A stretch of DNA of 64,000 nucleotides, from NCBI GenBank assembly GCA_964016885.1, contig OZ024742.1, positions 272,118,001 to 272,182,000 of the forward strand, read 5' to 3'. This stretch comes from Eledone cirrhosa (lineage: Eukaryota). Made by a program: the position numbers and the translations under genes. The notes under the pieces are model-generated. The model did not search any database, was not told the DNA's origin, and saw nothing but the letters and a program-made list of their open reading frames with translations. Positions 16,118-49,942 of this stretch are shown in pieces (the stretch's first letter is position 1; each line of letters starts with the position of its first letter).

Positions 16118-16716
16118 AATGATAATAATAATAGGGATTTCTATATTGGCCACAAGGGCTGACATCAAGAAAAACGTTACAGACGGCACAGGATGGTACA
16201 GGACGGTACTATGTGGGTTTTGTGCGTGTAAAGATTTTTATTATTTATATAAGAACGAACAAGAAAAAAGGCCATAGAAACATATATATATATATATATA
16301 AACAATAAAAGTGAAAATTCAAACAATGAAAAATTCCCTAATAGGGGAGAAACCTCTGAGGAGTTACACGTGCCGAAAACCACACAGAAGGCCACGGCCA
16401 CCCTGACAAACCAGGGCAAGCGCCCTCTTTCAATTTTTCCATTCCTCAAAGTACAAGCGTACATTCACTCGGACCATTCTCGCTCCATTCACCCATCTTT
16501 TGACAAACTTGCTAGAAGACAGCACTTGCTTCTTCACCCTGATTTTTCTCTTGAAGTGAAACTTGAAAAAGGTTAATCAGGGATTTGCCGAAGAGGAAAG
16601 TGTCTGTATTTAACCCTTTCAACCGTGTGAACCACACAATCTCTTTCGCCATGGCCACTGGCAGATGAAAACCCCTGCCCTTCCTCCTCGAAGGAAGACG
16701 GCGAGACCATCTGTAC
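16118..16716 (-). mobile_element. Tx1 subfamily B, short 5'-truncated copy D
   Basis: AATGATAATAATAAT tail, 3' UTR and ORF2 C-terminus paralleling 5884-6492. Confidence 0.85.
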
Positions 16717-16717
16717 A

Positions 16718-16838
16718 GAAATTGTTTCTACTTGTGGCAGAAGGTCAGGAATTATACTAGTGCATTACTGGTACATTATTTCATCGACCCCGTAAGGATG
16801 AATGGGAAATTTAACATTGGTGGGATTTGAACTCAGAT
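16718..16838 (-). mobile_element. tRNA-derived SINE, 5'-truncated and diverged
   Basis: Matches the full copy at 60039-60225 (ATCGACCCCGTAAGGATGAA...GGGATTTGAACTCAG; B-box GAGTTCAAATCCC on the minus strand). Confidence 0.8.
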
Positions 16839-17272
16839 AATAATAATAACTAGCAGAATTGCCAGGCGTTGCTCGGTATTCTGAACATAGATTGCCGTGT
16901 TTATCCCTCCTTTCTAAAACAGTACAGAGAAGTACGGAATACCCGGCCTCGTGATGGTGTCGACATTTTGTGCATATAAAAAAATAATTCATCGATAGTA
17001 CGTCAGCAATGAGAACAATATTTGCCCTAGGTATCTTATATATTTGATATATATTTATCCTCATCGAGTCTCGTAAAATAGGTATGTTTGTTTATATTTT
17101 GTTATTGTGCATGCAAAAATATGTGTACACTGATATATAATTATATATATATATTAAAATAACAGAAAGTTTAAGCAAATATTCGCTGATTTCGCCCTTA
17201 ACGGAACCTTCTGAAGCTAAAAATATCAACATGTGAGCACAGACGTAAATATTTCAATAAACGTTACACACA

Positions 17273-17293
17273 CTATATATATATATATATACA

Positions 17294-17362
<69 letters not shown>
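17273..17362. repeat. (AT)n microsatellite, left flank of the satellite array
   Basis: Direct reading. Confidence 0.95.
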
Positions 17363-17364
<2 letters not shown>

Positions 17365-17627
17365 TAAATCATGTGTTTAGAATTATTAGATAAAATATAT
17401 ACCGTTTCTTCTTCCAATTAGCATAATTAACCATGTAAAAAATCAATTAGACCAAGCTATAAGAAGAAAGGCTCTTATGAAGAAATCTTCGACAAATAAC
17501 CGAAAGTGGCCTCTTCGCGGTGACCCCAACATTTCGACAGCATGTGGAAACTGACTAAATATATCATCAGCCATACACAATTAGGTGTAAAATTAAACTT
17601 AGAAGAAATGTGTACATACCGTAGTTA

Positions 17628-17706
17628 TATCTCTACCATGGTTTCATCCGTATTTTTAGACATCCAATTAATAGGAATATCCTGAGTTACGATTCATCAG
17701 GAGACA
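17628..17706 (-). ncRNA. Type I hammerhead ribozyme motif (first monomer; one per monomer throughout the array)
   Basis: Minus strand: UGUCUC-CUGAUGA-AUCG...GGAU-GAAA-CCAUGG-UA-GAGAUA. Folded by eye. Confidence 0.7.
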
Positions 17707-20700
17707 AACTCAAAATCAGACATCTAGTTTTTCAACCTGATCGCGCCGAAATTAGATTCAAATATGGCTAAGAATCGCTATGTGGCTGTGGTCAAGCTAG
17801 AAAGAATGTGATTGGCTGCTTACGGTGGGTAGGCTTGTTGCTAGAAAGCGCAGCCAGATATCGCCAAATTTAATCTCAACCTAACAGGAGATTATTAAAT
17901 ATAAAGTTTTACATATACATAAAGTTATGGATATATATGTTGCAACTGGTCACTTTTAAGCTCTATGAAGAATTAATAAATTAAATAATCAGAGCAATAT
18001 ATAATAAATCATGTCTTTAGAATTATTAGATAAAATATATACCGTTTCTTCTTCCAATTAGCATAATTAAACCATATAAAAAATCAATTAGACCAAGCCA
18101 TAAGAAGAAAGGCTCTTATGAAGAAATCTTCGACAAATAACCGAAAGTGGCCTCTTCGCGGTGACCCCAATATGGTATATTTAGCCAACATTTCGACAGC
18201 ATGTGGAAACTGACTAAAAATATCATCAACCATACACAATTAGGTGTAAAATTAAACTTTAAAAAAATGTGTACATACCGTAATTATATCTCTACCATGG
18301 TTTCATCCGTATTTTTAGACATCCAATTAATAGGAATGCCCTGAGTTAGGATTCATCAGGAGTCAAACTCAAAATCAGACATCGAGTTTTTCAACCTGAT
18401 CGCGCCGAAATTAGATTTAAAAATGGCTAAGAATCGCTGTGGCTGAGGTCAAGCTAGAAAGTATGTGATTGGCTGCTTACGGCGGATAGGCTTGTTTCTA
18501 GAAAGCGCAGCCAGATATCGCCAAATTTAATCTCAACCTAATGGAAGATTATTAAATATAAAGTTTTACATATACATAAAGTTATAGATATATATGTTGC
18601 AACTGGTCACTTTTAAGCTATATGAAGAATTAATAAATTAAATAATCAGAGCAATATATCATAAATCATGTCTTTAGAATTATTAGATAAAATATATATC
18701 GTTTCTTCTTCCAATTAGCATAATTAACCATATAAAAAATCAATTAGACCAAGTTATAAGAAGATAGGCTCTTATGAAGAAATCTTCGACAAATAACCGA
18801 AAGTGGCCTCTTCGCAGTGACACCAATCTAGTATATTTATCCAACATTTCGACAGCATGTGGAAACTGACTAAATATATCATCAACCATACACAATTAGG
18901 TGTAAAATTAAACTTAGAAGAAATGTGTACATACCGTAATTATATCTCTACCATGGTTTCTTCCGTATTTTTAGACATCAAATTAATAGGAATGCCCTGA
19001 GTTACGATTCATCAGGAGTCAAACTCAAAATCAGACATCGAGTTTTTCAACCTGATCGCGCCGAAATTAGATTCATAAATGGCTAAGAATCGCTATGTGG
19101 CTGTGTGTCAAGCTAGAAAGTATGTGATTGGCTGCTTACGGCGGGTAGGCTTGTTTCTAGAAAGCGCAGCCAGATATCGCCAAATTTAATCTCAACCTAA
19201 TGGGAGATTATTAAATATAAAGTTTTACATAGACATAAAGTTATAGATATATATGTTGCAACTGGTCACTTTTAAGCTATATGAAGAATTAATAAATTAA
19301 ATAATCAGAGCAATATATCATAAATCATGTCTTTAGAATTATTAGATAAAATATATATCGTTTCTTCTTCCAATTAGCATAATTAACTATATAAAAAATC
19401 AATTAGACCAAGCTATAATAAGAAAGACTCTTATGAAGAAATCTTCGACAAATAACCGAAAGTGCCCTCTTCGCGGTGACGCCGATATGGTATATTTATC
19501 CAACATTTCTACAGCATGTGGAAACTGACTAAATATATCATAAAACATACACAATTAGGTGTAAAATTAAACAGTAGAAGAAATGTGTACATACCGTAAT
19601 TATATCTCTACCATGGTTTCATCCGTATTTTTAGACATCCAATTAATAGGAATGCCCTGAGTTAGGCTTCATCAGGAGTCAAACTCAAAATCAGACATCG
19701 AGTTTTTCAACCTGATCGCGCGAAATTAGATTCAAAAATGGCTAAGAATCACTGTGGCTGTGGTCAAGCTAGAAAGTATATGATTGGCTGCTTACGGCGG
19801 GTAGGCTTGTTTTTAGAAAGCGCAGCCAGATATCGCCAAATTTAATCTCAACCTAATGGGAGATTATTAAATATAAAGTTTTACATAGACATAAAGTTAT
19901 AGATATATATGTTGCAACTGGTCACTTTTAAGCTATATGAAGAATTAATAAATTAAATAATCAGAGCAATATATCATAAATCATGTCTTTAGAATTATTA
20001 GATAAAATATATACCGTTTCTTCTTCCAATTAGCATAATTAAACCATATAAAAAATCAATTAGACCAAGCCATAAGAAGAAAGGCTCTTATGAAGAAATC
20101 TTCGACAAATAACCGAAAGTGGCCTCTTCGCGGTGACCCCAATATGGTATATTTAGCCAACATTTCGCCAGTATGTGGAAACTGACTAAATATATCATCA
20201 ACCATACACAATTAGGCGTAAAATTAAACTTAGAAGAAATGTGTACATACCGTAATTATATCTCTACCATGGTTTCATCCGTATTTTTAGACATCCAATT
20301 AATAGGAATGCCCTGAGTTAGGATTCATCAGGAGTCAAACTCAAAATCAGACATCAAGTTTTTCAACCTGATCGCGCCGAAATTAGATTAAAAAATGGCT
20401 AAGAATCGCTGTGGCTGAGGTCAAGCTAGAAAGTATGTGATTGGCTGCTTACGGCGGGTAGGCTTGTTTCAAGAAAGCGCAGCCAGATATCGCCAAATTT
20501 AATCTCAACCTAATGGGAGATTATTAAATATAAAGTTTTACATATACATAAAGTTATAGATATATATGTTGCAACTGGTCACTTTTAAGCTATATGAAGA
20601 ATTAATAAATTAAATAATCAGAGCAATATATCATAAATCATGTCTTTAGAATTATTAGATAAAATATATATCGTTTCTTCTTCCAATTAGCATAAATAAC

Positions 20701-23700
20701 CATATAAAAAATCAATTAGACCAAGTTATAAGAAGATAGGCTCTTATGAAGAAATCTTTGACAAATAACCGAAAGTGGCCTCTTCGCAGTGACACCAATA
20801 TAGTATATTTATCCAACATTTCGACAGCATGTGGAAACTGACTAAATATATCATCAACCATACACAATTAGGTGTAAAATTAAACTTAGAAGAAATGTGT
20901 ACATACCGTAATTATATCTCTACCATGGTTTCTTCCGTATTTTTAGACATCCAATTAATAGGAATGCCCTGAGTTACGATTCATCAGGAGTCAAACTCAA
21001 AATGAGACATCGAGTTTTTCAACCTGATCGCGCCGAAATTAGATTCATAAATGGCTAAGAATCGCTGTGGCTGAGGTCAAGCTAGAAAGTATGTGATTGG
21101 CTGCTTACGGCGGATAGGCTTGTTTCTAGAAAGCGCAGCCAGATATCGCCAAATTTAATCTCAACCTAATGGAAGATTATTAAATATAAAGTTTTACATA
21201 TACATAAAGTTATAGATATATATGTTGCAACTGGTCACTTTTAAGCTATATGAAGAATTAATAAATTAAATAATCAGAGCAATATATCATAAATCATGTC
21301 TTTAGAATTATTAGATAAAATATATATCGTTTCTTCTTCCAATTAGCATAATTAACCATATAAAAAATCAATTAGACCAAGTTATAAGAAGATAGGCTCT
21401 TATGAAGAAATCTTCGACAAATAACCGAAAGTGGCCTCTTCGCAGTGACACCAATATAGTATATTTATCCAACATTTCGACAGCATGTGGAAACTGACTA
21501 AATATATCATCAACCATACACAATTAGGTGTAAAATTAAACTTAGAAGAAATGTGTACATACCGTAATTATATCTCTACCATGGTTTCTTCCGTATTTTT
21601 AGACATCAAATTAATAGGAATGCCCTGAGTTACGATTCATCAGGAGTCAAACTCAAAATCAGACATCGAGTTTTTCAACCTGATCGCGCCGAAATTAGAT
21701 TCATAAATGGCTAAGAATCGCTATGTGGCTGTGTGTCAAGCTAGAAAGTATGTGATTGGCTGCTTACGGCGGGTAGGCTTGTTTCTAGAAAGCGCAGCCA
21801 GATATCGCCAAATTTAATCTCAACCTAATGGGAGATTATTAAATATAAAGTTTTACATAGACATAAAGTTATAGATATATATGTTGCAACTGGTCACTTT
21901 TAAGCTATATGAAGAATTAATAAATTAAATAATCAGAGCAATATATCATAAATCATGTCTTTAGAATTATTAGATAAAATATATATCGTTTCTTCTTCCA
22001 ATTAGCATAATTAACTATATAAAAAATCAATTAGACCAAGCTATAATAAGAAAGACTCTTATGAAGAAATCTTCGACAAATAACCGAAAGTGCCCTCTTC
22101 GCGGTGACGCCGATATGGTATATTTATCCAACATTTCTACAGCATGTGGAAACTGACTAAATATATCATAAAACATACACAATTAGGTGTAAAATTAAAC
22201 AGTAGAAGAAATGTGTACATACCGTAATTATATCTCTACCATGGTTTCATCCGTATTTTTAGACATCCAATTAATAGGAATGCCCTGAGTTAGGCTTCAT
22301 CAGGAGTCAAACTCAAAATCAGACATCGAGTTTTTCAACCTGATCGCGCGAAATTAGATTCAAAAATGGCTAAGAATCACTGTGGCTGTGGTCAAGCTAG
22401 AAAGTATATGATTGGCTGCTTACGGCGGGTAGGCTTGTTTTTAGAAAGCGCAGCCAGATATCGCCAAATTTAATCTCAACCTAATGGGAGATTATTAAAT
22501 ATAAAGTTTTACATAGACATAAAGTTATAGATATATATGTTGCAACTGGTCACTTTTAAGCTATATGAAGAATTAATAAATTAAATAATCAGAGCAATAT
22601 ATCATAAATCATGTCTTTAGAATTATTAGATAAAATATATACCGTTTCTTCTTCCAATTAGCATAATTAAACCATATAAAAAATCAATTAGACCAAGCCA
22701 TAAGAAGAAAGGCTCTTATGAAGAAATCTTCGACAAATAACCGAAAGTGGCCTCTTCGCGGTGACCCCAATATGGTATATTTAGCCAACATTTCGCCAGC
22801 ATGTGGAAACTGACTAAATATATCATCAACCATACACAATTAGGCGTAAAATTAAACTTAGAAGAAATGTGTACATACCGTAATTATATCTCTACCATGG
22901 TTTCATCCGTATTTTTAGACATCCAATTAATAGGAATGCCCTGAGTTAGGATTCATCAGGAGTCAAACTCAAAATCAGACATCAAGTTTTTCAACCTGAT
23001 CGCGCCGAAATTAGATTAAAAAATGGCTAAGAATCGCTGTGGCTGAGGTCAAGCTAGAAAGTATGTGATTGGCTGCTTACGGCGGGTAGGCTTGTTTCAA
23101 GAAAGCGCAGCCAGATATCGCCAAATTTAATCTCAACCTAATGGGAGATTATTAAATATAAAGTTTTACATATACATAAAGTTATAGATATATATGTTGC
23201 AACTGGTCACTTTTAAGCTATATGAAGAATTAATAAATTAAATAATCAGAGCAATATATCATAAATCATGTCTTTAGAATTATTAGATAAAATATATATC
23301 GTTTCTTCTTCCAATTAGCATAAATAACCATATAAAAAATCAATTAGACCAAGTTATAAGAAGATAGGCTCTTATGAAGAAATCTTTGACAAATAACCGA
23401 AAGTGGCCTCTTCGCAGTGACACCAATATAGTATATTTATCCAACATTTCGACAGCATGTGGAAACTGACTAAATATATCATCAACCATACACAATTAGG
23501 TGTAAAATTAAACTTAGAAGAAATGTGTACATACCGTAATTATATCTCTACCATGGTTTCTTCCGTATTTTTAGACATCCAATTAATAGGAATGCCCTGA
23601 GTTACGATTCATCAGGAGTCAAACTCAAAATGAGACATCGAGTTTTTCAACCTGATCGCGCCGAAATTAGATTCATAAATGGCTAAGAATCGCTGTGGCT

Positions 23701-26700
23701 GAGGTCAAGCTAGAAAGTATGTGATTGGCTGCTTACGGCGGATAGGCTTGTTTCTAGAAAGCGCAGCCAGATATCGCCAAATTTAATCTCAACCTAATGG
23801 AAGATTATTAAATATAAAGTTTTACATATACATAAAGTTATAGATATATATGTTGCAACTGGTCACTTTTAAGCTATATGAAGAATTAATAAATTAAATA
23901 ATCAGAGCAATATATCATAAATCATGTCTTTAGAATTATTAGATAAAATATATATCGTTTCTTCTTCCAATTAGCATAATTAACCATATAAAAAATCAAT
24001 TAGACCAAGTTATAAGAAGATAGGCTCTTATGAAGAAATCTTCGACAAATAACCGAAAGTGGCCTCTTCGCAGTGACACCAATATAGTATATTTATCCAA
24101 CATTTCGACAGCATGTGGAAACTGACTAAATATATCATCAACCATACACAATTAGGTGTAAAATTAAACTTAGAAGAAATGTGTACATACCGTAATTATA
24201 TCTCTACCATGGTTTCTTCCGTATTTTTAGACATCAAATTAATAGGAATGCCCTGAGTTACGATTCATCAGGAGTCAAACTCAAAATCAGACATCGAGTT
24301 TTTCAACCTGATCGCGCCGAAATTAGATTCATAAATGGCTAAGAATCGCTATGTGGCTGTGTGTCAAGCTAGAAAGTATGTGATTGGCTGCTTACGGCGG
24401 GTAGGCTTGTTTCTAGAAAGCGCAGCCAGATATCGCCAAATTTAATCTCAACCTAATGGGAGATTATTAAATATAAAGTTTTACATAGACATAAAGTTAT
24501 AGATATATATGTTGCAACTGGTCACTTTTAAGCTATATGAAGAATTAATAAATTAAATAATCAGAGCAATATATCATAAATCATGTCTTTAGAATTATTA
24601 GATAAAATATATACCGTTTCTTCTTCCAATTAGCATAATTAAACCATATAAAAAATCAATTAGACCAAGCCATAAGAAGAAAGGCTCTTATGAAGAAATC
24701 TTCGACAAATAACCGAAAGTGGCCTCTTCGCGGTGACCCCAATATGGTATATTTAGCCAACATTTCGACAGCATGTGGAAACTGACTAAATATATCATCA
24801 ACCATACACAATTAGGTGTAAAATTAAACTTAGAAGAAATGTGTACATACCGTAATTATATCTCTACCATGATTTCATCCGTATTTTTAGACATCCAATT
24901 AATAGGAATGCCCTAAGTTAGGATTCATCAGGAATCAAACTCAAAATCAGACATCGAGTTTTTCAACCTGATCGCGCCGAAATTAGATTAAAAAATGGCT
25001 AAGAATCGCTGTGGCTGAGGTCAAGCTAGAAAGTATGTGATTGGCTGCTTACGGCGGGTAGGCTTGTTTCAAGAAAGCGCAGCCAGATATCGCCAAATTT
25101 AATCTCAACCTAATGGGAGATTATTAAATATAAAGTTTTACATATACATAAAGTTATAGATATATATGTTGCAACTGGTCACTTTTAAGCTATATGAAGA
25201 ATTAATAAATTAAATAATCAGAGCAATATATCATAAATCATGTCTTTAGAATTATTAGATAAAATATATATCGTTTCTTCTTCCAATTAGCATAATTAAC
25301 CATATAAAAAATCAATTAGACCAAATTATAAGAAGATAGGCTCTTATGAAGAAATCTTTGACAAATAACCGAAAGTGGCCTCTTCGCAGTGACACCAATA
25401 TAGTATATTTATCCAACATTTCGACAGCATGTGGAAACTGACTAAATATATCATCAACCATACACAATTAGGTGTAAAATTAAACTTAGAAGAAATGTGT
25501 ACATACCGTAATTATATCTCTACCATGGTTTCTTCCGTATTTTTAGACATCCAATTAATAGGAATGCCCTGAGTTACGATTCATCAGGAGTCAAACTCAA
25601 AATCAGACATCGAGTTTTTCAACCTGATCGCGCCGAAATTAGATTCATAAATGGCTAAGAATCGCTTTGTGGCTGTGTGTCAAGCTAGAAAGTATGTGAT
25701 TGGCTGCTTACGGCGGGTAGGCTTGTTTCTAGAAAGCGCAGCCAGATATCGCCAAATTTAATCTCAACCTAACGGGCGATTATTAAATATAAAGTTTTAC
25801 ATATACATAAAGTTATAGATATATATGTTGCAACTGGTCACTTTTAAGCTCTATCAAGAATTAATAAATTAAATAATCAGAGCAATATATCATAAATCAT
25901 GTCTTTAGAATTATTAAATAAAATATATACCGTTTCTTCTTCCAATTAGCATAATTAACCATATAAAAAATCAATTAGACCAAGCTATAATAAGAAAGAC
26001 TCTTATGAAGAAATCTTCGACAAATAACCGAAAGTGCCCTCTTCGCGGTGACGCCGATATGGTATATTTATCCAACATTTCTACAGCATGTGGAAACTGA
26101 CTAAATATATCATCAAACATACACAATTAGGTGTAAAATTAAACAGTAGAAGAAATGTGTACATACCGTAATTATATCTCTACCATGGTTTCATCCGTAT
26201 TTTTAGACATCCAATTAATAGGAATGCCCTGAGTTAGGCTTCATCAGGAGTCAAACTCAAAATCAGACATCGAGTTTTTCAACCTGATCGCGCCGAAATT
26301 AGATTAAAAAATGGCTAAGAATCGCTGTGGCTGAGGTCAAGCTAGAAAGTATGTGATTGGCTGCTTACGGCGGGTAGGCTTGTTTCAAGAAAGCGCAGCC
26401 AGATATCGCCAAATTTAATCTCAACCTAATGGGAGCTTATTAAATATAAAGTTTTACATATACATAAAGTTATAGATATATATGTTGCAACTGGTCACTT
26501 TTAAGCTATATGAAGAATTAATAAATTAAATAATCAGAGCAATATATCATAAATCATGTCTTTAGAATTATTAGATAAAATATATATCGTTTCTTCTTCC
26601 AATTAGCATAATTACCATATAAAAAATCAATTAGACCAAGTTATAAGAAGATAGGCTCTTATGAAGAAATCTTTGACAAATAACCGAAAGTGGCCTCTTC

Positions 26701-29700
26701 GCAGTGACACCAATATAGTATATTTATCCAACATTTCGACAGCATGTGGAAACTGACTAAATATATCATCAACCATACACAATTAGGTGTAAAATTAAAC
26801 TTAGAAGAAATGTGTACATACCGTAATTATATCTCTACCATGGTTTCTTCCGTATTTTTAGACATCCAATTAATAGGAATGCCCTGAGTTACGATTCATC
26901 AGGAGTCAAACTCAAAATCAGACATCGAGTTTTTCAACCTGATCGCGCCGAAATTAGATTCATAAATGGCTAAGAATCGCTTTGTGGCTGTGTGTCAAGC
27001 TAGAAAGTATGTGATTGGCTGCTTACGGCGGGTAGGCTTGTTTCTAGAAAGCGCAGCCAGATATCGCCAAATTTAATCTCAACCTAACGGGCGATTATTA
27101 AATATAAAGTTTTACATATACATAAAGTTATAGATATATATGTTGCAACTGGTCACTTTTAAGCTCTATCAAGAATTAATAAATTAAATAATCAGAGCAA
27201 TATATCATAAATCATGTCTTTAGAATTATTAAATAAAATATATACCGTTTCTTCTTCCAATTAGCATAATTAACCATATAAAAAATCAATTAGACCAAGC
27301 TATAATAAGAAAGACTCTTATGAAGAAATCTTCGACAAATAACCGAAAGTGCCCTCTTCGCGGTGACGCCGATATGGTATATTTATCCAACATTTCTACA
27401 GCATGTGGAAACTGACTAAATATATCATCAAACATACACAATTAGGTGTAAAATTAAACAGTAGAAGAAATGTGTACATACCGTAATTATATCTCTACCA
27501 TGGTTTCATCCGTATTTTTAGACATCCAATTAATAGGAATGCCCTGAGTTAGGCTTCATCAGGAGACAAACTCAAAATCAGACATCGAGTTTTTCAACCT
27601 GATCGCGCCGAAATTAGATTAAAAAATGGCTAAGAATCGCTGTGGCTGAGGTCAAGCTAGAAAGTATGTGATTGGCTGCTTACGGCGGGTAGGCTTGTTT
27701 CTAGAAAGCGCAGCCAGATATCGCCAAATTTAATCTCAACCTAATGGGAGATTATTAAATATAAAGTTTTACATATACATAAAGTTATAGATATATATGT
27801 TGCAACTGGTCACTTTTAAGCTATATGAAGAATTAATAAAATAATAATCAGAGCAATATATCATAAATCATGTCTTTAGAATTATTAGATAAAATATATA
27901 TCGTTTCTTCTTCCAATTAGCATAATTAACCATATAAAAAATCAATTAGACCAAGTTATAAGAAGATAGGCTCTTATGAAGAAATCTTTGACAAATAACC
28001 GAAAGTGGCCTCTTCGCAGTGACACCAATATAGTATATTTATCCAACATTTCGACAGCATGTGGAAACTGACTAAATATATCATCAACCATACACAATTA
28101 GGTGTAAAATTAAACTTAGAAGAAATGTGTACATACCGTAATTATATCTCTACCATGGTTTCTTCCGTATTTTTAGACATCCAATTAATAGGAATGCCCT
28201 GAGTTACGATTCATCAGGAGTCAAACTCAAAATCAGACATCGAGTGTTTCAACCTGATCGCGCCGAAATTAGATTCATTAATGGCTAAGAATCGCTTTGT
28301 GGCTGTGTGTCAAGCTAGAAAGTATGTGATTGGCTGCTTACGGCGGGTAGGCTTGTTTCTAGAAAGCGCAGCCAGATATCGCCAAATTTAATCTCAACCT
28401 AACGGGCGATTATTAAATATAAAGTTTTACATATACATAAAGTTATAGATATATATGTTGCAACTGGTCACTTTTAAGCTCTATCAAGAATTAATAAATT
28501 AAATAATCAGAGCAATATATCATAAATCATGTCTTTAGAATTATTAAATAAAATATATACCGTTTCTTCTTCCAATTAGCATAATTAACCATATAAAAAA
28601 TCAATTAGACCAAGCTATAAGAAGAAAGACTCTTATGAAGAAATCTTCGACAAATAACCGAAAGTGTCCTCTTCGCGGTGACGCCGATATGGTATATTTA
28701 TCCAACATTTCTACAACATGTGGAAACTGACTAAATATATCATCAACCATACACAATTAGGTGTAAAATTCAACAGTAGAAGAAATGTGTACATACCGTA
28801 ATTATATCTCTACCATGGTTTCATCCGTATTTTTAGACATCCAATTAATAGGAATGCCCTGAGTTAGGCTTCATCAGGAGTCAAACTCAAAATCAGACAT
28901 CGAGTTTTTCAACCTGATCGCGCCGAAATTAGATTCAAAAATGGCTAAGAATCACTGTGGCTGTGGTCAAGCTAGAAAGTATATGATTGGCTGCTTACGG
29001 CGGGTAGGCTTGTTTCTAGAAAGCGCAGCCAGATATCGCCAAATTTAATCTCAACCTAATGGGAGATTATTAAATATAAAGTTTTACATAGACATAAAGT
29101 TATAGATATATATGTTGCAACTGGTCACTTTTAAGCTATATGAAGAATTAATAAATTAAATAATCAGAGCAATATATCATAAATCATGTCTTTAGAATTA
29201 TTAGATAAAATATATACCGTTTCTTCTTCCAATTAGCATAATTAAACCATATAAAAAATCAATTAGACCAAGCCATAAGAAGAAAGGCTCTTATGAAGAA
29301 ATCTTCGACAAATAACCGAAAGTGGCCTCTTCGCGGTGACCCCAATATGGTATATTTAGCCAACATTTCGACAGCATGTGGAAACTGACTAAATATATCA
29401 TCAACCATACACAATTAGGTGTAAAATTAAACTTAGAAGAAATGTGTACATACCGTAATTATATCTCTACCATGGTTTCATCCGTATTTTTAGACATCCA
29501 ATTAATAGGAATGCCCTGAGTTAGGCTTCATCAGGAGTCAAACTCAAAATCAGACATCGAGTTTTTCAACCTGATCGCGCCGAAATTAGATTAAAAAATG
29601 GCTAAGAATCGCTGTGGCTGAGGTCAAGCTAGAAAGTATGTGATTGGCTGCTTACGGCGGGTAGGCTTGTTTCAAGAAAGCGCAGCCAGATATCGCCAAA

Positions 29701-35700: not shown

Positions 35701-38700
35701 GTCACTTTTAAGCTATATGAAGAATTAATAAATTAAATAATCAGAGCAATATATCATAAATCATGTCTTTAGAATTATTAGATAAAATATATACCGTTTC
35801 TTCTTCCAATTAGCATAATTAAACCATATAAAAAATCAATTAGACCAAGCCATAAGAAGAAAGGCTCTTATGAAGAAATCTTCGACAAATAACCGAAAGT
35901 GGCCTCTTCGCGGTGACCCCAATATGGTATATTTAGCCAACATTTCGACAGCATGTGGAAACTGACTAAATATATCATCAACCATACACAATTAGGTGTA
36001 AAATTAAACTTAGAAGAAATGTGTACATACCGTAATTATATCTCTACCATGGTTTCATCCGTATTTTTAGACATCCAATTAATATGAATGCCCTGAGTTA
36101 GGATTCATCAGGAGTCAAACTCAAAATCAGACATCGAGTTTTTCAACCTGATCGCGCCGAAATTAGATTAAAAAATGGCTAAGAATCGCTGTGGCTGAGG
36201 TCAAGCTAGAAAGTATGTGATTGGCTGCTTACGGCGGGTAGGCTTGTTTCAAGAAAGCGCAGCCAGATATCGCCAAATTTAATCTCAACCTAATGGGAGA
36301 TTATTAAATATAAAGTTTTACATATACATAAAGTTATAGATATATATGTTGCAACTGGTCACTTTTAAGCTATATGAAGAATTAATAAATTAAATAATCA
36401 GAGCAATATATCATAAATCATGTCTTTAGAATTATTAGATAAAATATATATGGTTTCTTCTTCCAATTAGCATAATTAACCATATAAAAAATCAATTAGA
36501 CCAAGTTATAAGAAGATAGACTCTTATGAAGAAATCTTCGACAAATAACCGAAAGTGCCCTCTTCGCGGTGACGCCGATATGGTATATTTATCCAACATT
36601 TCTACAACATGTGGAAACTGACTAAATATATCATCAACCATACACAATTAGGTGTAAAATTAAACAGTAGAAGAAATGTGTACATACCGTAATTATATCT
36701 CTACCATGGTTTCATCCGTATTTTTAGACATCCAATTAATAGGAATGCCCTGAGTTAGGCTTCATCAGGAGTCAAACTCAAAATCAGACATCGAGTTTTT
36801 CAACCTGATCGCGCCGAAATTAGATTCAAAAATGGCTAAGAATCACTGTGGCTGTGGTCAAGCTAGAAAGTATATGATTGGCTGCTTACGGCGGGTAGGC
36901 TTGTTTCTAGAAAGCGCAGCCAGATATCGCCAAATTTAATCTCAACCTAATGGGAGATTATTAAATATAAAGTTTTACATATACATAAAGTTATAGATAT
37001 ATATGTTGCAACTGGTCACTTTTAAGCTATATGAAGAATTAATAAATTAAATAATCAGAGCAATATATCATAAATCATGTCTTTAGAATTATTAGATAAA
37101 ATATATATCGTTTCTTCTTCCAATTAGCATAATTAACCATATAAAAAATCAATTAGACCAAGTTATAAGAAGATAGGCTCTTATGAAGAAATCTTTGACA
37201 AATAACCGAAAGTGGCCTCTTCGCAGTGACACCAATATAGTATATTTATCCAACATTTCGACAGCATGTGGAAACTGACTAAATATATCATCAACCATAC
37301 ACAATTAGGTGTAAAATTAAACTTAGAAGAAATGTGTACATACCGTAATTATATCTCTACCATGGTTTCTTCCGTATTTTTAGACATCCAATTAATAGGA
37401 ATGCCCTGAGTTACGATTCATCAGGAGTCAAACTCAAAATCAGACATCGAGTTTTTCAACCTGATCGCGCCGAAATTAGATTCATAAATGGCTAAGAATC
37501 GCTTTGTGGCTGTGTGTCAAGCTAGAAAGTATGTGATTGGCTGCTTACGGCGGGTAGGCTTGTTTCTAGAAAGCGCAGCCAGATATCGCCAAATTTAATC
37601 TCAACCTAACGGGCGATTATTAAATATAAAGTTTTACATATACATAAAGTTATAGATATATATGTTGCAACTGGTCACTTTTAAGCTCTATCAAGAATTA
37701 ATAAATTAAATAATCAGAGCAATATATCATAAATCATGTCTTTAGAATTATTAAATAAAATATATACCGTTTCTTCTTCCAATTAGCATAATTAACCATA
37801 TAAAAAATCAATTAGACCAAGCTATAAGAAGAAAGACTCTTATGAAGAAATCTTCGACAAATAACCGAAAGTGCCCTCTTCGCGATGACGCCGATATGGT
37901 ATATTTATCCAACATTTCTACAACATGTGGAAACTGACTAAATATATCATCAACCATACACAATTAGGTGTAAAATTAAACAGTAGAAGAAATGTGTACA
38001 TACCGTAATTATATCTCTACCATGGTTTCATCCGTATTTTTAGACATCCAATTAATAGGAATGCCCTGAGTTAGGCTTCATCAGGAGTCAAACTCAAAAT
38101 CAGACATCGAGTTTTTCAACCTGATCGCGCCGAAATTAGATTCAAAAATGGCTAAGAATCACTGTGGCTGTGGTCAAGCTAGAAAGTATATGATTGGCTG
38201 CTTACGGCGGGTAGGCTTGTTTCTAGAAAGCGCAGCCAGATATCGCCAAATTTAATCTCAACCTAATGGGAGATTATTAAATATAAAGTTTTACATAGAC
38301 ATAAAGTTATAGATATATATGTTGCAACTGGTCACTTTTAAGCTATATGAAGAATTAATAAATTAAATAATCAGAGCAATATATCATAAATCATGTCTTT
38401 AGAATTATTAGATAAAATATATACCGTTTCTTCTTCCAATTAGCATAATTAAACCATATAAAAAATCAATTAGACCAAGCCATAAGAAGAAAGGCTCTTA
38501 TGAAGAAATCTTCGACAAATAACCGAAAGTGGCCTCTTCGCGGTGACCCCAATATGGTATATTTAGCCAACATTTCGACAGCATGTGGAAACTGACTAAA
38601 TATATCATCAACCATACACAATTAGGTGTAAAATTAAACTTAGAAGAAATGTGTACATACCGTAATTATATCTCTACCATGGTTTCATCCGTATTTTTAG

Positions 38701-41700
38701 ACATCCAACTAATAGGAATGCCCTGAGTTAGGATTCATCAGGAGTCAAACTCAAAATCAGACATCGAGTTTTTCAACCTGATCGCGCCGAAATTAGATTA
38801 AAAAATGGCTAAGATTCGCTGTGGCTGAGGTCAAGCTAGAAAGTATGTGATTGGCTGCTTACGGCGGGTAGGCTTGTTTCAAGAAAGCGCAGCCAGATAT
38901 CGCCAAATTTAATCTCAACCTAATGGGAGATTATTAAATATAAAGTTTTACATATACATAAAGTTATAGATATATATGTTGCAACTGGTCACTTTTAAGC
39001 TCTATGAAGAATTAATAAATTAAATAATCAGAGCAATATATCATAAATCATGTCTTTAGAATTATTAGATAAAATATATATGGTTTCTTCTTCCAATTAG
39101 CATAATTAACCATATAAAAAATCAATTAGACCAAGTTATAAGAAGATAGACTCTTATGAAGAAATCTTCGACAAATAACCGTAAGTGCCCTCTTCGCGGT
39201 GACGCCGATATGGTATATTTATCCAACATTTCTACAACATGTGGAAACTGACTAAATATATCATCAACCATACACAATTAGGTGTAAAATTAAACAGTAG
39301 AAGAAATGTGTACATACCGTAATTATATCTCTACCATGGTTTCATCCGTATTTTTAGACATCCAATTAATAGGAATGCCCTGAGTTAGGCTTCATCAGGA
39401 GTCAAACTCAAAATCAGACATCGAGTTTTTCAACCTGATCGCGCCGAAATTAGATTCAAAAATGGCTAAGAATCACTGTTGCTGTGGTCAAGCTAGAAAG
39501 TATATGATTGGCTGCTTACGGCGGGTAGGCTTGTTTCTAGAAAGCGCAGCCAGATATCGCCAAATTTAATCTCAACCTAATGGGAGATTATTAAATATAA
39601 AGTTTTACATAGACATAAAGTTATAGATATATATGTTGCAACTGGTCACTTTTAAGCTATATGAAGAATTAATAAATTAAATAATCAGAGCAATATATCA
39701 TAAATCATGTCTTTAGAATTATTAGATAAAATATATATCGTTTCTTCTTCCAATTAGCATAATTAACCATATAAAAAATCAATTAGACCAAGTTATAAGA
39801 AGATAGGCTCTTATGAAGAAATCTTTGACAAATAACCGAAAGTGGCCTCTTCGCAGTGACACCAATATAGTATATTTATCCAACATTTCGACAGCATGTG
39901 GAAACTGACTAAATATATCATCAACCATACACAATTAGGTGTAAAATTAAACTTAGAAGAAATGTGTACATACCGTAATTATATCTCTACCATGGTTTAT
40001 TCCGTATTTTTAGACATCCAATTAATAGGAATGCCCTGAGTTACGATTCATCAGGAGTCAAACTCAAAATCAGACATCGAGTTTTTCAACCTGATCGCGC
40101 CGAAATTAGATTCATAAATGGCTAAGAATCGCTTTGTGGCTGTGTGTCAAGCTAGAAAGTATGTGATTGGCTGCTTACGGCGGGTAGGCTTGTTTCTAGA
40201 AAGCGCAGCCAGATATCGCCAAATTTAATCTCAACCTAACGGGCGATTATTAAATATAAAGTTTTACATATACATAAAGTTATAGATATATATGTTGCAA
40301 CTGGTCACTTTTAAGCTCTATCAAGAATTAATAAATTAAATAATCAGAGCAATATATCATAAATCATGTCTTTAGAATTATTAAATAAAATATATACCGT
40401 TTCTTCTTCCAATTAGCATAATTAACCATATAAAAAATCAATTAGACCAAGCTATAAGAAGAAAGACTCTTATGAAGAAATCTTCGACAAATAACCGAAA
40501 GTGCCCTCTTCGCGATGACGCCGATATGGTATATTTATCCAACATTTCTACAACATGTGGAAACTGACTAAATATATCATCAACCATACACAATTAGGTG
40601 TAAAATTAAACAGTAGAAGAAATGTGTACATACCGTTATTATATCTCTACCATGGTTTCATCCGTATTTTTAGACATCCAATTAATAGGAATGCCCTGAG
40701 TTAGGCTTCATCAGGAGTCAAACTCAAAATCAGACATCGAGTTTTTCAACCTGATCGCGCCGAAATTAGATTCAAAAATGGCTAAGAATCACTGTGGCTG
40801 TGGTCAAGCTAGAAAGTATATGATTGGCTGCTTACGGCGGGTAGGCTTGTTTCTAGAAAGCGCAGCCAGATATCGCCAAATTTAATCTCAACCTAATGGG
40901 AGATTATTAAATATAAAGTTTTACATAGACATAAAGTTATAGATATATATGTTGCAACTGGTCACTTTTAAGCTATATGAAGAATTAATAAATTAAATAA
41001 TCAGAGCAATATATCATAAATCATGTCTTTAGAATTATTAGATAAAATATATACCGTTTCTTCTTCCAATTAGCATAATTAAACCATATAAAAAATCAAT
41101 TAGACCAAGCCATAAGAAGAAAGGCTCTTATGAAGAAATCTTCGACAAATAACCGAAAGTGGCCTCTTCGCGGTGACCCCAATATGGTATATTTAGCCAA
41201 CATTTCGACAGCATGTGGAAACTGACTAAATATATCATCAACCATACACAATTAGGTGTAAAATTAAACTTAGAAGAAATGTGTACATACCGTAATTATA
41301 TCTCTACCATGGTTTCATCCGTATTTTTAGACATCCAACTAATAGGAATGCCCTGAGTTAGGATTCATCAGGAGTCAAACTCAAAATCAGACATCGAGTT
41401 TTTCAACCTGATCGCGCCGAAATTAGATTAAAAAATGGCTAAGATTCGCTGTGGCTGAGGTCAAGCTAGAAAGTATGTGATTGGCTGCTTACGGCGGGTA
41501 GGCTTGTTTCAAGAAAGCGCAGCCAGATATCGCCAAATTTAATCTCAACCTAATGGGAGATTATTAAATATAAAGTTTTACATATACATAAAGTTATAGA
41601 TATATATGTTGCAACTGGTCACTTTTAAGCTATATGAAGAATTAATAAATTAAATAATCAGAGCAATATATCATAAATCATGTCTTTAGAATTATTAGAT

Positions 41701-44700
41701 AAAATATATATCGTTTCTTCTTCCAATTAGCATAATTAACCATATAAAAAATCAATTAGACCAAGTTATAAGAAGATAGGCTCTTATGAAGAAATCTTTG
41801 ACAAATAACCGAAAGTGGCCTCTTCGCAGTGACACCAATATAGTATATTTATCCAACATTTCGACAGCATGTGGAAACTGACTAAATATATCATCAACCA
41901 TACACAATTAGGTGTAAAATTAAACTTAGAAGAAATGTGTACATACCGTAATTATATCTCTACCATGGTTTCTTCCGTATTTTTAGACATCCAATTAATA
42001 GGAATGCCCTGAGTTACGATTCATCAGGAGTCAAACTCAAAATCAGACATCGAGTTTTTCAACCTGATCGCGCCGAAATTAGATTCATAAATGGCTAAGA
42101 ATCGCTTTGTGGCTGTGTGTCAAGCTAGAAAGTATGTGATTGGCTGCTTACGGCGGGTAGGCTTGTTTCTAGAAAGCGCAGCCAGATATCGCCAAATTTA
42201 ATCTCAACCTAACGGGCGATTATTAAATATAAAGTTTTACATATACATAAAGTTATAGATATATATGTTGCAACTGGTCACTTTTAAGCTCTATCAAGAA
42301 TTAATAAATTAAATAATCAGAGCAATATATCATAAATCATGTCTTTAGAATTATTAAATAAAATATATACCGTTTCTTCTTCCAATTAGCATAATTAACC
42401 ATATAAAAAATCAATTAGACCAAGCTATAAGAAGAAAGACTCTTATGAAGAAATCTTCGACAAATAACCGAAAGTGCCCTCTTCGCGATGACGCCGATAT
42501 GGTATATTTATCCAACATTTCTACAACATGTGGAAACTGACTAAATATATCATCAACCATACACAATTAGGTGTAAAATTAAACAGTAGAAGAAATGTGT
42601 ACATACCGTAATTATATCTCTACCATGGTTTCATCCGTATTTTTAGACATCCAATTAATAGGAATGCCCTGAGTTAGGCTTCATCAGGAGTCAAACTCAA
42701 AATCAGACATCGAGTTTTTCAACCTGATCGCGCCGAAATTAGATTCAAAAATGGCTAAGAATCACTGTGGCTGTGGTCAAGCTAGAAAGTATATGATTGG
42801 CTGCTTACGGCGGGTAGGCTTGTTTCTAGAAAGCGCAGCCAGATATCGCCAAATTTAATCTCAACCTAATGGGAGATTATTAAATATAAAGTTTTACATA
42901 GACATAAAGTTATAGATATATATGTTGCAACTGGTCACTTTTAAGCTATATGAAGAATTAATAAATTAAATAATCAGAGCAATATATCATAAATCATGTC
43001 TTTAGAATTATTAGATAAAATATATACCGTTTCTTCTTCCAATTAGCATAATTAAACCATATAAAAAATCAATTAGACCAAGCCATAAGAAGAAAGGCTC
43101 TTATGAAGAAATCTTCGACAAATAACCGAAAGTGGCCTCTTCGCGGTGACCCCAATATGGTATATTTAGCCAACATTTCGACAGCATGTGGAAACTGACT
43201 AAATATATCATCAACCATACACAATTAGGTGTAAAATTAAACTTAGAAGAAATGTGTACATACCGTAATTATATCTCTACCATGGTTTCATCCGTATTTT
43301 TAGACATCCAACTAATAGGAATGCCCTGAGTTAGGATTCATCAGGAGTCAAACTCAAAATCAGACATCGAGTTTTTCAACCTGATCGCGCCGAAATTAGA
43401 TTAAAAAATGGCTAAGATTCGCTGTGGCTGAGGTCAAGCTAGAAAGTATGTGATTGGCTGCTTACGGCGGGTAGGCTTGTTTCAAGAAAGCGCAGCCAGA
43501 TATCGCCAAATTTAATCTCAACCTAATGGGAGATTATTAAATATAAAGTTTTACATATACATAAAGTTATAGATATATATGTTGCAACTGGTCACTTTTA
43601 AGCTCTATGAAGAATTAATAAATTAAATAATCAGAGCAATATATCATAAATCATGTCTTTAGAATTATTAGATAAAATATATATGGTTTCTTCTTCCAAT
43701 TAGCATAATTAACCATATAAAAAATCAATTAGACCAAGTTATAAGAAGATAGACTCTTATGAAGAAATCTTCGACAAATAACCGTAAGTGCCCTCTTCGC
43801 GGTGACGCCGATATGGTATATTTATCCAACATTTCTACAACATGTGGAAACTGACTAAATATATCATCAACCATACACAATTAGGTGTAAAATTAAACAG
43901 TAGAAGAAATGTGTACATACCGTAATTATATCTCTACCATGGTTTCATCCGTATTTTTAGACATCCAATTAATAGGAATGCCCTGAGTTAGGCTTCATCA
44001 GGAGTCAAACTCAAAATCAGACATCGAGTTTTTCAACCTGATCGCGCCGAAATTAGATTCAAAAATGGCTAAGAATCACTGTTGCTGTGGTCAAGCTAGA
44101 AAGTATATGATTGGCTGCTTACGGCGGGTAGGCTTGTTTCTAGAAAGCGCAGCCAGATATCGCCAAATTTAATCTCAACCTAATGGGAGATTATTAAATA
44201 TAAAGTTTTACATAGACATAAAGTTATAGATATATATGTTGCAACTGGTCACTTTTAAGCTATATGAAGAATTAATAAATTAAATAATCAGAGCAATATA
44301 TCATAAATCATGTCTTTAGAATTATTAGATAAAATATATATCGTTTCTTCTTCCAATTAGCATAATTAACCATATAAAAAATCAATTAGACCAAGTTATA
44401 AGAAGATAGGCTCTTATGAAGAAATCTTTGACAAATAACCGAAAGTGGCCTCTTCGCAGTGACACCAATATAGTATATTTATCCAACATTTCGACAGCAT
44501 GTGGAAACTGACTAAATATATCATCAACCATACACAATTAGGTGTAAACTTAAACTTAGAAGAAATGTGTACATACCGTAATTATATCTCTACCATGGTT
44601 TCATCCGTATTTTTAGACATCCAATTAATAGGAATGCCCTGAGTTAGGATTCATCAGGAGTCAAACTCAAAATCAGACATCGAGTTTTTCAACCTGATCG

Positions 44701-47215
44701 CGCCGAAATTAGATTCATAAATGGCTAAGAATCGCTATGTGGCTGTGTGTCAAGCTAGAAAGTATGTGATTGGCTGCTTACGGCGGGTAGGCTTGTTTCT
44801 AGAAAGCGCAGCCAGATATCGCCAAATTTAATCTCAACCTAACGGGCGATTATTAAATATAAAGTTTTACATATACATAAAGTTATAGATATATATGTTG
44901 CAACTGGTCACTTTTAAGCTCTATCAAGAATTAATAAATTAAATAATCAGAGCAATATATCATAAATCATGTCTTTAGAATTATTAAATAAAATATATTC
45001 CGTTTCTTCTTCCAATTAGCATAATTAACCATATAAAAAATCAATTAGACCAAGCTATAAGAAGAAAGACTTTTATGAAGAAATCTTCGACAAATAACCG
45101 AAAGTGCCCTCTTCGCGGTGACGCCGATATTGTATATTTATCCAATATTTCTACAACATGTGGAAACTGACTAAATATATCATCAACCATACACAATAGG
45201 TGTAAAATTAAACAGTAGAAGAAATGTGTACATACCGTAATTATATCTCTACTATGGTTTCATCCGTATTTTTAGACATCCAATTAATAGGAATGCCCTG
45301 AGTTAGGCTTCATCAGGAGTCAAACTCAAAATCAGACATCGAGTTTTTCAACCTGATCGCGCCGAAATTAGATTCAAAAATGGCTAAGAATCACTGTGGC
45401 TGTGGTCAAGCTAGAAAGTATATGATTGGCTGCTTACGGCGGGTAGGCTTGTTTCTAGAAAGCGCAGCCAGATATCGCCAAATTTAATCTCAACCTAATG
45501 GGAGATTATTAAATATAAAGTTTTACATAGACATAAAGTTATAGATATATATGTTGCAACTGGTCACTTTTAAGCTATATGAAGAATTAATAAATTAAAT
45601 AATCAGAGCAATATATCATAAATCATGTCTTTAGAATTATTAGATAAAATATATACCGTTTCTTCTTCCAATTAGCATAATTAAACCATATAAAAAATCA
45701 ATTAGACCAAGCCATAAGAAGAAAGGCTCTTATGAAGAAATCTTCGACAAATAACCGAAAGTGGCCTCTTCGCGGTGACCCCAATATGGTATATTTAGCC
45801 AACATTTCGACAGCATGTGGAAACTGACTAAATATATCATCAACCATACACAATTAGGTGTAAACTTAAACTTAGAAGAAATGTGTACATACCGTAATTA
45901 TATCTCTACCATGGTTTCATCCGTATTTTTAGACATCCAATTAATAGGAATGCCCTGAGGTAGGATTCATCAGGAGTCAAACTCAAAATCAGACATCGAG
46001 TTTTTCAACCTGATCGCGCCGAAATTAGATTCATAAATGGCTAAGAATCGCTATGTGGCTGTGTGTCAAGCTAGAAAGTATGTGATTGGCTGCTTACGGC
46101 GGGTAGGCTTGTTTCTAGAAAGCGCAGCCAGATATCGCCAAATTTAATCTCAACCTAACGGGCGATTATTAAATATAAAGTTTTACATATACATAAAGTT
46201 ATAGATATATATGTTGCAACTGGTCACTTTTAAGCTCTATCAAGAATTAATAAATTAAATAATCAGAGCAATATATCATAAATCATGTCTTTAGAATTAT
46301 TAAATAAAATATATTCCGTTTCTTCTTCCAATTAGCATAATTAACCATATAAAAAATCAATTAGACCAAGCTATAAGAAGAAAGACTTTTATGAAGAAAT
46401 CTTCGACAAATAACCGAAAGTGCCCTCTTCGCGGTGACGCCGATATTGTATATTTATCCAATATTTCTACAACATGTGGAAACTGACTAAATATATCATC
46501 AACCATACACAATAGGTGTAAAATTAAACAGTAGAAGAAATGTGTACATACCGTAATTATATCTCTACTATGGTTTCATCCGTATTTTTAGACATCCAAT
46601 TAATAGGAATGCCCTGAGTTAGGCTTCATCAGGAGTCAAACTCAAAATCAGACATCGAGTTTTTCAACCTGATCGCGCCGAAATTAGATTCAAAAATGGC
46701 TAAGAATCACTGTGGCTGTGGTCAAGCTAGAAAGTATATGATTGGCTGCTTACGGCGGGTAGGCTTGTTTCTAGAAAGCGCAGCCAGATATCGCCAAATT
46801 TAATCTCAACCTAATGGGAGATTATTAAATATAAAGTTTTACATAGACATAAAGTTATAGATATATATGTTGCAACTGGTCACTTTTAAGCTATATGAAG
46901 AATTAATAAATTAAATACTCAGAGCAATGTATCATAAATCATGTCTTTAGAATTATTAGATAAAATATATACTGTTTCTTCTTCCAATTAGCATAATTAA
47001 CCATATAAAATATCAATTAGACCAAGTTATAAGAAAAAAGGCTCTTATGAAGAAATCTTCGACAAATAACCGAAAGTGGCCTCTTCGCAGTGACACCAAT
47101 ATAGTATATTTATCCAACATTTCCACAGCATGTGGAAACTGACTAAATATATCATCAACAATACACAATTAGGTGTAAAATTAAACTTAGAAGAAATGTG
47201 TACATACCGTAATTA

Positions 47216-47294
47216 TATCTCTACCATGGTTTCATCCGTATTTTTAGACATCCAATTAATAGGAATGTCCTGAGTTAGGATTCATCAGGAGACA
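47216..47294 (-). ncRNA. Type I hammerhead ribozyme motif, best-preserved copy (last direct monomer)
   Basis: UGUCUC|CUGAUGA|AUCC uaacuca GGACAuUCC uauuaauu GGAUGUCU aaaaauac GGAU|GAAA|C-CAUG-G|UA^|GAGAUA. Stem I is 6 bp, stem II is extended, stem III is minimal with the palindrome ACCAUGGU. Predicted cleavage is after GUA, between 47222 and 47221. Confidence 0.8.
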
Positions 47295-47497
47295 AACTCA
47301 AAATCAGACATCTAGTTTTTTAACCTGATCGCGCCGAAATTAGATTAAAAAATGGCTAAGAATCGCTATGTGGCTGTGGTCAAGCTAGAAAGAATGTGAC
47401 TGGCTGCTTACGGATATCGCCAGATATCGCCAAATCTTTTCTCAACCTAACGGGAGATTATTATATATACAGTTTTAATTATACATAAAGTTATAAA

Positions 47498-48595
47498 GTT
47501 ATTTGTCGAAGATTTCTTCATAAGAGCATTTCTTCTTATAGCTTGGTCTAATTGATTTTTTATATGGTTAATTATGCTAATTGGAAGAAGAAACGGTATA
47601 TATTTTATCTAATACTTCTAAAGACATGATTTATGATATATTGCTCTGATTATTTAATTTATTAATTCTTCATAGAGCTTAAAAGTGACAGGTTGCAACA
47701 CATATATCTATAACTTTATGTATATGTAAATCTTTATATTTAATAATCTCCCATTAGTTTGAGATTAAATTTGGTGATCTCTGGCTGCGCTTTCTAGCAA
47801 CAAGCCTACCCGCCGTAAGCAGCCAATCCCATTCTTTCTAGCTTGACCACAGCCACATAGCGACTCTTAGCCATTTTTGAATCTAATTTCGGCGCGATCA
47901 GGTTGAAAAACTCGATGTCTGATTCTGAGTTTGACTCCTGATGAATCCTAACTCAGGACATTCCTATTAATTGGATGTCTAAAAATACGGATGAGACCAT
48001 GGTAGAGATATAATTACGGTATGTACACATTTCTTCTGAGTTTAATTTTACACCTAATTGTGTATGGTTGATGATATATATAGTCAGTTTCTACGTGCTG
48101 TCGAAATGCTGGAAAAATATACTATATTGGGGTCACCACGAAGAGGCCACTTTCGGTTATTTGTCGAAGGTTTCTTGATAAGAGTCTTTCTTCTCATAGC
48201 TTGGACTAATTGATTTTTTATATGGTTAATTATGCTAATTGGAAGAAGAAACGGTATATAGTATATCTAATAATTCTAAAGACATGATTTATGATATATT
48301 GCTCTGATTATTTAAATTATTATTTCTTCATAGAGCTTAAAAGTGACCAGTTGCAACATATATATCTATAACTTTATGTACATGTAAAACTTTATATTCA
48401 ATAATCTCCCGTTAGGTTGAGATTAAATTTGGCGATATCTGGCTGCGCTTTCTAGCAACAAGCCTACTCGCCGTAAGCAGCCAATCACATTCTTTCTAGC
48501 TTGATCACAGCCACATAGCGATTATTAGCCATTTATGAATCTGATTTCGGCGCGATGAGGTTGAAAAACTAGATGTCTGATTTTGAGTCTGTCTC

Positions 48596-48600
<5 letters not shown>
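47498..48600. repeat. Inverted block of ~1.7 satellite monomers
   Basis: Reverse complement of the array unit. Its hammerhead at 47932-48010 (+) has GAAA mutated to GAGA. The block ends at GTCTCCTGAT and runs into (AT)n. Confidence 0.95.

Positions 48601-48690
<90 letters not shown>

Positions 48691-49910: not shown

Positions 49911-49942
<32 letters not shown>

Follow-up and report, generated by a model that had tools for sequence, protein, structure and literature searches.

The window analysed here is a 64,000-nt stretch of the Eledone cirrhosa genome (assembly GCA_964016885.1, 3.0 Gb; contig OZ024742.1, called C3, 272.12-272.18 Mb), and it contains a long tandem array of a non-coding repeat that carries a predicted hammerhead ribozyme. 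A query of the window with one monomer returned 45 full periods of 655-661 bp each and a partial unit, from 17362 to about 47502, and the claimed 30-kb array of ~46 copies of a ~657-bp unit was thus real. Beyond this main arm lay an inverted stretch of about 1.7 units, reaching 48599. The original prediction had no place for this inverted arm (47498-48599), nor for the flanking (TA)n, the higher-order structure or the dispersal of the family. The features of the insertion were as follows:

17274-17361, no strand: (TA)n microsatellite, left target site (Tandem Repeats Finder row 17274-17362 and reading of the sequence)
17362-47502, minus strand: main arm, about 45.9 head-to-tail units of ~657 bp (monomer query)
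46826-46931, minus strand: one instance of the 106-nt 'tail' (unit positions 1-106) that separates the two fixed 3' ends of the family
47498-47502, no strand: 5'-to-5' inversion junction, where GTTAT is compatible with both arms
47498-48599, plus strand: inverted arm of about 1.7 units, whose start lies close to unit position 519
48600-48669, no strand: (TA)n microsatellite, right target site

The main arm ended on its 3' side at the family's fixed short end (unit position 656), directly abutting (TA)n, and its higher-order repeats were built from three main monomer types, with a mean pairwise distance between units of 21 in 661 columns. In the ~190 bp of the main arm next to the junction (47,316-47,502), ~22 nt were deleted, a short stretch was duplicated locally and the substitutions were clustered, and no other unit was alike. 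The inverted arm held one complete motif, with GAAA replaced by GAGA, and ended inside the second CTGAT (unit ~304) instead of at the usual 106 end. The GC content of the unit was 0.32. As had been claimed, the monomer appeared to be non-coding, since the longest ATG open reading frame (ORF) in the one unit tested was 47 aa, and no ORF with reverse transcriptase (RT) and GIY-YIG domains was found in the unit or joined to it among the window frames and the loci read. Our preferred reading, to which we give a probability of about 0.78, is that the array is one (TA)n-flanked insertion with an inverted arm, derived from a dispersed non-coding hammerhead repeat, which was likely copied by the machinery of Penelope-like elements (PLEs) and likely then multiplied at the DNA level, and in which the predicted ribozyme has decayed.

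The hammerhead motif lay on the minus strand in each main-arm unit and occurred once complete on the plus strand, in the inverted arm. The proposed order of parts, stem I-CUGAUGA-stem II-GAAA-C(CAUG)G-UA-stem I', was present on the minus strand and best at 47216-47294, and both the palindrome, ACCAUGGU, and a bipartite stem II were seen. The parts of this best motif were:

47216-47294, minus strand: the sole array motif with the family's full predicted type I hammerhead
47294-47289/47221-47216, minus strand: stem I
47288-47282 and 47233-47230, minus strand: core, CUGAUGA and GAAA
47281-47278/47237-47234, minus strand: stem II, inner hairpin included
47230-47223, minus strand: palindrome, with the predicted cut between 47222 and 47221
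47272-47299, minus strand: predicted 4-bp pseudoknot of GAGU (47299-47296, 5' of stem I) with ACUC (47275-47272, stem II internal loop)

The motif exceeds chance, since a type I descriptor recognised the best monomer but none (0) of its 5,000 dinucleotide shuffles. Rfam returned no hammerhead at gathering score in the window (0 hits) and none among 11 weak hits in 46500-48700 at E values up to 10. The 48-nt stem II region and the minimal stem III probably fall outside the Rfam models.

The window contained 47 complete motifs, 46 in the main arm and one in the inverted arm. The core letters were kept in 45 of them and the palindrome in 44. Stem I reached at least 4 bp in 3 motifs and stem II at least 4 bp in 13, and all parts came together in a single one; 11 motifs passed if a 3-bp stem I was allowed. 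Among the 46 main-arm units, 43 had an A.A mismatch in stem I and 33 had lost stem II pair 1 or 2. Adopting the hammerhead fold cost 1.7 kcal/mol in the best copy vs 6-11 kcal/mol in the internal types. Variation was not depleted in the ribozyme columns, of which 8/38 varied vs 83/623 of the others (P=0.22). These counts describe a predicted ribozyme that is decayed in the array, with the family's stems left in 1 of 47 motifs, and the claim that every monomer encodes a ribozyme did not hold. High self-pairing is a trait of retrozyme monomers; when folded as a circle and compared with 30 shuffles per unit, a young dispersed unit had z -3.8 and the best array unit z -1.7. Eight natural stretches of 0.9 kb were also folded as ensembles, which did not discriminate, because the probability of stem I was low alike in array, young and old copies.

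At the level of the family, the hammerhead is by its sequence pattern a genuine type I motif with a palindromic stem III, a conserved core and compensatory changes in stems I and II, for which cleavage is predicted. The pattern had 2,124 hits genome-wide vs 0 for a reversed control. In 56 divergent loci gathered by BLAST without selection for the core, the 11 core columns were 0.985 conserved vs 0.866 elsewhere and 0.62 at N7 (P about 1e-4, with columns that are not independent), and the region around the core, 281-340, was among the most variable of the unit. Position H17 was A or C. Compensatory swaps were seen at stem II pair 1 (G-C/A-U), pair 3 (C-G/U-A) and pair 5 (G-C/U-A) and at stem I pair 4 (U-A/C-G). 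In 83 loci chosen by the core pattern, stem II pair 1 was A-U in 35, G-C in 22, A.A in 14 and A.C in 8; stem II pair 5 was G-C in 36, U-A in 14 and U.C in 24; and stem I pair 4 was U-A in 59 and C-G in 10. Covariation among dispersed relatives, which had been named as a test of the motif, was present: in 45-row alignments 90-95% of cells were paired, compared to 29-53% in slid controls, and 7-8 pairs were altered on both sides. In one subfamily that has been successful, stem II begins with an A.A pair, a hint that copies can spread without full ribozyme activity.

A 2-bp stem III would require a 2-nt loop, and inside a single copy CAUG can be enclosed only by C15.2-G16.2 plus A15.1-U16.1; the palindrome suits the dimer model of PMC4209133. 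The predicted pseudoknot between helix I and helix II is moderately supported by its pairing pattern. The GAGY and RCUC motifs were paired in 79 of the 80 loci that had both (89 examined, 9 without a motif), and the variable pair was U-A in 57, C-G in 20, U-G in 2 and a mismatch in 1. Overall 98% of the pseudoknot cells were paired, and the support stays moderate because the tree holds a single change. Pseudoknots between stems I and II are common in other hammerheads and required there for fast cutting (PMC3088659).

An active ribozyme satellite, in which cleavage of read-through transcripts would yield ~657-nt monomers or circles as the source of new insertions, is the original proposal and the likeliest alternative, and we consider it improbable. 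The kept core and palindrome and the 11 motifs with stem II plus a 3-bp stem I speak for it, as do the pseudoknot strands, intact or compensated in 45/46 units. One good half of a dimer can cut its neighbour (PMC4209133), and coral retrozyme arrays are expressed as circles (PMC7229834). Against this stand the single fully intact motif, the folding cost of the internal types, the undepleted variation in the ribozyme columns, and the failure of 8/9 predicted Xenopus dimers to cut (bioRxiv 10.64898/2026.07.22.740005). An array-private G, one variant in one subfamily, was furthermore found in 33/35 window matches and 0/28 elsewhere, and the array therefore shows no sign of having seeded copies elsewhere.

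A monomer search of the genome gave 3,836 first-look candidates, of which 26 were scored, with 87 matches. The short end (position 656) followed by TA formed 952 exact junctions (reversed control 0), and the long end (position 106 of the next unit) followed by TA formed 1,245 (reversed control 7). The anatomy was read at 89 loci, all of them on C1 and taken from the first 100 in the list of short-end junctions. Their main arms had a median of 253 nt, with 20/89 reaching one unit and 3/89 two units. An inverted arm joined 5' to 5' was present in 48/89 loci; it ended at 106/109 in 37 of these 48, with the other arm at 656, and the far end lay at TA in 58/89 loci. The predicted cut site was crossed by 43/89 main arms without a pile-up of ends, and the templates were therefore not simple cut monomers. 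Of 135 5' ends, 5 fell at 360-375, a 16-nt window in which about 3 are expected, a count that includes BLAST breaks and a few duplicated loci (L052/L053, L120-L122). Across subfamilies 70-95% alike, which formed a ladder-like tree, the unit length and ends were preserved, and 73 full natural units measured 621-668 bp. No linked ORF was found in 16/16 loci of the older subfamilies. Family pieces also occurred in contigs of three runs from one sample, of a kind not on record, which are uninformative on array length and expression.

The copies of the unit carry Penelope-like marks: they are truncated at the 5' end, form partial tandems, have arms in inverted orientation, sit at TA targets and show a pair of fixed 3' ends separated by 106 nt. 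PLE insertions are described as truncated at the 5' end, arranged in partial tandems, accompanied by an inverted 5' copy, extended at one end by a tail of 30-40 bp and biased towards (TA)n (PMC8557442). A PLE protein cuts both strands of AT-rich DNA, reverse transcription starts at two internal RNA sites whose interval is the tail, and cutting by the hammerhead is not required (PMC11167929). RT+GIY-YIG elements were numerous in the genome (150 scored GIY-YIG hits), and one family of them (Pfam RVT_1 and GIY-YIG) had a matching anatomy with a ~43-nt tail. The proposed mobilisation in trans by PLEs is thus supported by the two ends, the inversions and the TA targets; it is drawn from this anatomy because no helper sharing unit sequence turned up in 101 PLE loci. 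A blastn search for an untranslated region (UTR) common to the unit and PLEs found none, and the PLE homology search covered part of 10,597 GIY-YIG candidates.

Several observations on other elements accompany this search. The RT+GIY-YIG family with the ~43-nt tail is near-full and Penelope/Poseidon-like (L086:1540-4640 and L176-L200; about 1,157 first-look candidates), with two 3' ends ~43 nt apart, TA targets and inversions. Its terminal AAACCTTTATA resembled the unit and was rejected as evidence for a helper, as it is that element's short end with a different 43-nt tail. Another PLE family carried a compact hammerhead-like motif with a different palindrome (AAGTACTT) in its 3' UTR (L079, L080, L083, L089, L091), and the other PLE families sampled had no canonical hammerhead motif in the stretch read. 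At L099 (C1:86,692,760-86,697,286) a unit piece, 491-656, was joined by its 5' end, across (TA)30, to a ~40-nt inverted copy of the 3' end of the neighbouring PLE, which would be due either to a chimeric cDNA or to folding back on the flank. Two sequences related to the unit only very distantly (L240:1457-1580, L251:5988-6367) have kept the tail and the 3' region and suggest older subfamilies. Hammerhead-like motifs also occurred in unrelated repeat families (L083:7476-7530, L094:5462, L262).

A further alternative takes the unit for the pseudo-long terminal repeat (pseudo-LTR, pLTR) of an autonomous PLE, surviving as solo or tandem copies. The end signatures are PLE-like, and matches between retrozyme families and PLE pLTRs are frequent: 24/57 Xenopus retrozyme families matched known elements, nearly all of them PLEs (bioRxiv 10.64898/2026.07.22.740005). 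However, one unit end ran straight into the next unit in 622 exact junctions, no ORF adjoined the unit in the loci read, no UTR homology was found in the 101 PLE loci, and the unit length was stable across the subfamilies. We therefore regard this origin as highly unlikely.

The layout of the array points to DNA-level expansion after insertion. Adjacent units differed by 27 columns on average and none were within 3, while units 2, 3, 4, 7 and 10 apart were often nearly identical, and exact blocks of 3,037, 1,941 and 1,813 bp recurred at lags of 7, 10 and 4 units. The 36 distinct unit sequences grouped together inside the youngest subfamily (support 91/87), and the 34 distinct internal units formed one supported clade (99/94) to which neither the end unit nor the inverted arm belonged. 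A second array, at C1:92,985,616-93,016,028 (L156-L159), contained about 45 units (~30 kb) of another subfamily. Its anatomy was complete, with an inverted arm ending at 106, a main arm ending at 656 and (TA)n on both sides; it too had higher-order blocks, with an exact one of 3,538 bp, and the first stem II pair was absent in 25/26 motifs scored. The near-equal length of the two arrays could reflect either chance or assembly.

The higher-order blocks, the exact duplications and the internal clade bear directly on another alternative, in which a circular RNA was reverse-transcribed by a rolling-circle mechanism and all 46 units arose in that one step. A short insertion had units of a single subfamily and 53/93 within-locus pairs shared a locus-private allele, as this would predict, and a circle would allow the passage of 43/89 main arms through the cut site without a pile-up. 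Uncut tandem RNA accounts for the read-through equally well, however, and only 3/89 main arms reached two units. The within-locus distance was 3.2% vs 3.1% to the nearest other locus and was the lower one in 39/93 pairs, some of which are separate neighbouring insertions. Rolling-circle synthesis predicts a star tree; in the array the clades are nested, the blocks recur periodically and exact duplications span several kb. A rolling-circle origin is contradicted for the present array, and we see hardly any chance for it, although the first few units may still fit. Least likely of all is an array length that is largely an assembly artefact, which the exact blocks, as long as 3.0 kb in the window and 3.5 kb in the array on C1, and the length of about 30 kb shared by both arrays would suit, but which 36 distinct unit sequences, private and recombinant variants and ordered change along the array oppose.

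The preferred reading, an insertion copied by PLE machinery and then expanded as DNA, starts from a family whose ends, inversions, ORF-less unit and covarying predicted hammerhead are documented in the genome sequence. A helper PLE protein would nick (TA)n on both strands. Reverse transcription would then start at the internal positions 656 and 106 and give two outward-pointing arms joined 5' to 5', on a template longer than one unit that could be an uncut tandem transcript or a circle, neither being strongly favoured. Unequal exchange or slippage would later have spread a few internal units into the blocks of 2, 3, 4, 7 and 10 that are seen in the array. The locus would now be mostly a passive satellite, with a transcript that is cut at few sites, if any.

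A number of points weigh against this reading. Concerning the machinery, no helper was found, as the family profile matched no PLE UTR in the 101 PLE loci (the matches were separate nested copies); the 106-nt tail exceeds the 30-40 nt in print, and the inverted arm in the window lacks the 106 end. Concerning the ribozyme, the tree is ladder-like and the covariation on it amounts to a small number of events, the core pattern served to select alignments A1 and A2, and RNAalifold on A1 gave stem II only partly and did not recover the hammerhead fold. The single-strand folding energy of the best copy was no better than that of shuffles (z -0.7; five copies folded, none better). The private-variant test is limited to its one variant. 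Finally, the long exact duplications could partly be assembly artefacts, given that both long arrays are about 30 kb.

Judged from its sequence, the array behaves like a non-LTR retrozyme and does not qualify as an autonomous PLE, and the retrozyme family is dispersed and co-occurs with PLEs in the genome. Animal non-LTR retrozymes (Cervera and de la Pena 2020, PMC7229834; Li, Clavereau and Pollet 2026) are likewise non-coding AT-rich tandem units with a type I hammerhead each and no LTR. They range from monomers to long multimers, co-occur with PLEs and are proposed to grow locally in tandem by unequal crossover. In coral they reach 62-mers and form circles, and PLEs were named as the likely helpers (PMC7229834). 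Published units span 51-972 bp in arrays of up to 180 and 300 repeats, with growth by unequal crossover and cutting in 1/9 dimers (bioRxiv 10.64898/2026.07.22.740005). The present unit size and copy number lie inside these ranges (51-972 bp; 62, 180 and 300 units). The suggestion that such an array looks undescribed therefore fails, and the second 30-kb array tells against it as well. The present unit differs in being longer than the 150-450 bp units tested by Northern blot, in being known from DNA alone, in its lack of detected pLTR homology in the 101 PLE loci, and in a clear signature of two-end tail and inverted arms, which was not noticed in the retrozyme accounts consulted. No account of this family was found in the literature; Repbase, Dfam and preprint supplements lay outside the search, and a prior name may exist.

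Likeness to the endonuclease-bearing (EN+) clades of PLEs and to non-autonomous PLE derivatives such as MRC1 extends to 5' truncation, partial tandems, the inverted 5' arm, an optional one-end tail and the (TA)n preference (PMC8557442, PMC11167929), and to a hammerhead with a palindromic helix III; the present unit differs by having no ORF and a tail of 106 nt instead of 30-40 nt. The hammerhead satellites of newts (satellite 2), schistosomes and Dolichopoda crickets (pDo500) also form satellite-like arrays with units of a few hundred bp, but are transcribed and cut, in contrast to the mostly decayed array described here (PMC7229834). Pseudoknot hammerheads (Perreault et al. 2011, PMC3088659) share a short Watson-Crick contact of stem I with stem II that replaces loop-loop contacts. 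The contact predicted here differs in that it reaches into an internal loop of stem II, which is bipartite, and in that the motif is of the dimer type, has a minimal stem III and is unmatched by Rfam models. Two details are apparently new: a tail of 106 nt on a unit that has no ORF, and the pseudoknot as predicted.

The surroundings of the array included several decayed copies resembling long interspersed nuclear elements (LINE-like, RT) on the minus strand, at 1-17,000 and 49,000-57,200 of the window. A short repeat with the core GGATGAAAGGCAAAGT occurred at 16,790, 52,320 and 56,261-56,655 (tandem, 201 bp).

A bolder proposal is that the family is a long-lived parasite of PLEs with a new hammerhead architecture, a dimer-type core that a pseudoknot locks into the internal loop of the bipartite stem II, and that its ~657-nt circles are copied by a PLE enzyme from two internal starts 106 nt apart. 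We hold this to be tentative and rather unlikely. If true, the family's insertions, which number in the thousands, would prove directly from a genome that PLE machinery serves retrozymes, and would give a means of testing a circle against a tandem template. The mobilisation of retrozymes by PLEs has so far been argued from co-occurrence and pLTR homology, and here an ORF-less unit shows a PLE tail and inversion. The ribozyme fold missed by Rfam may extend the models used in hammerhead searches. The array itself would be a side product, a retrozyme insertion that turned into a satellite with an eroding ribozyme, as the 2026 preprint proposes in general. Two independent 30-kb arrays together with about a thousand short insertions would then offer a dated view of the birth of a satellite from a retroelement.

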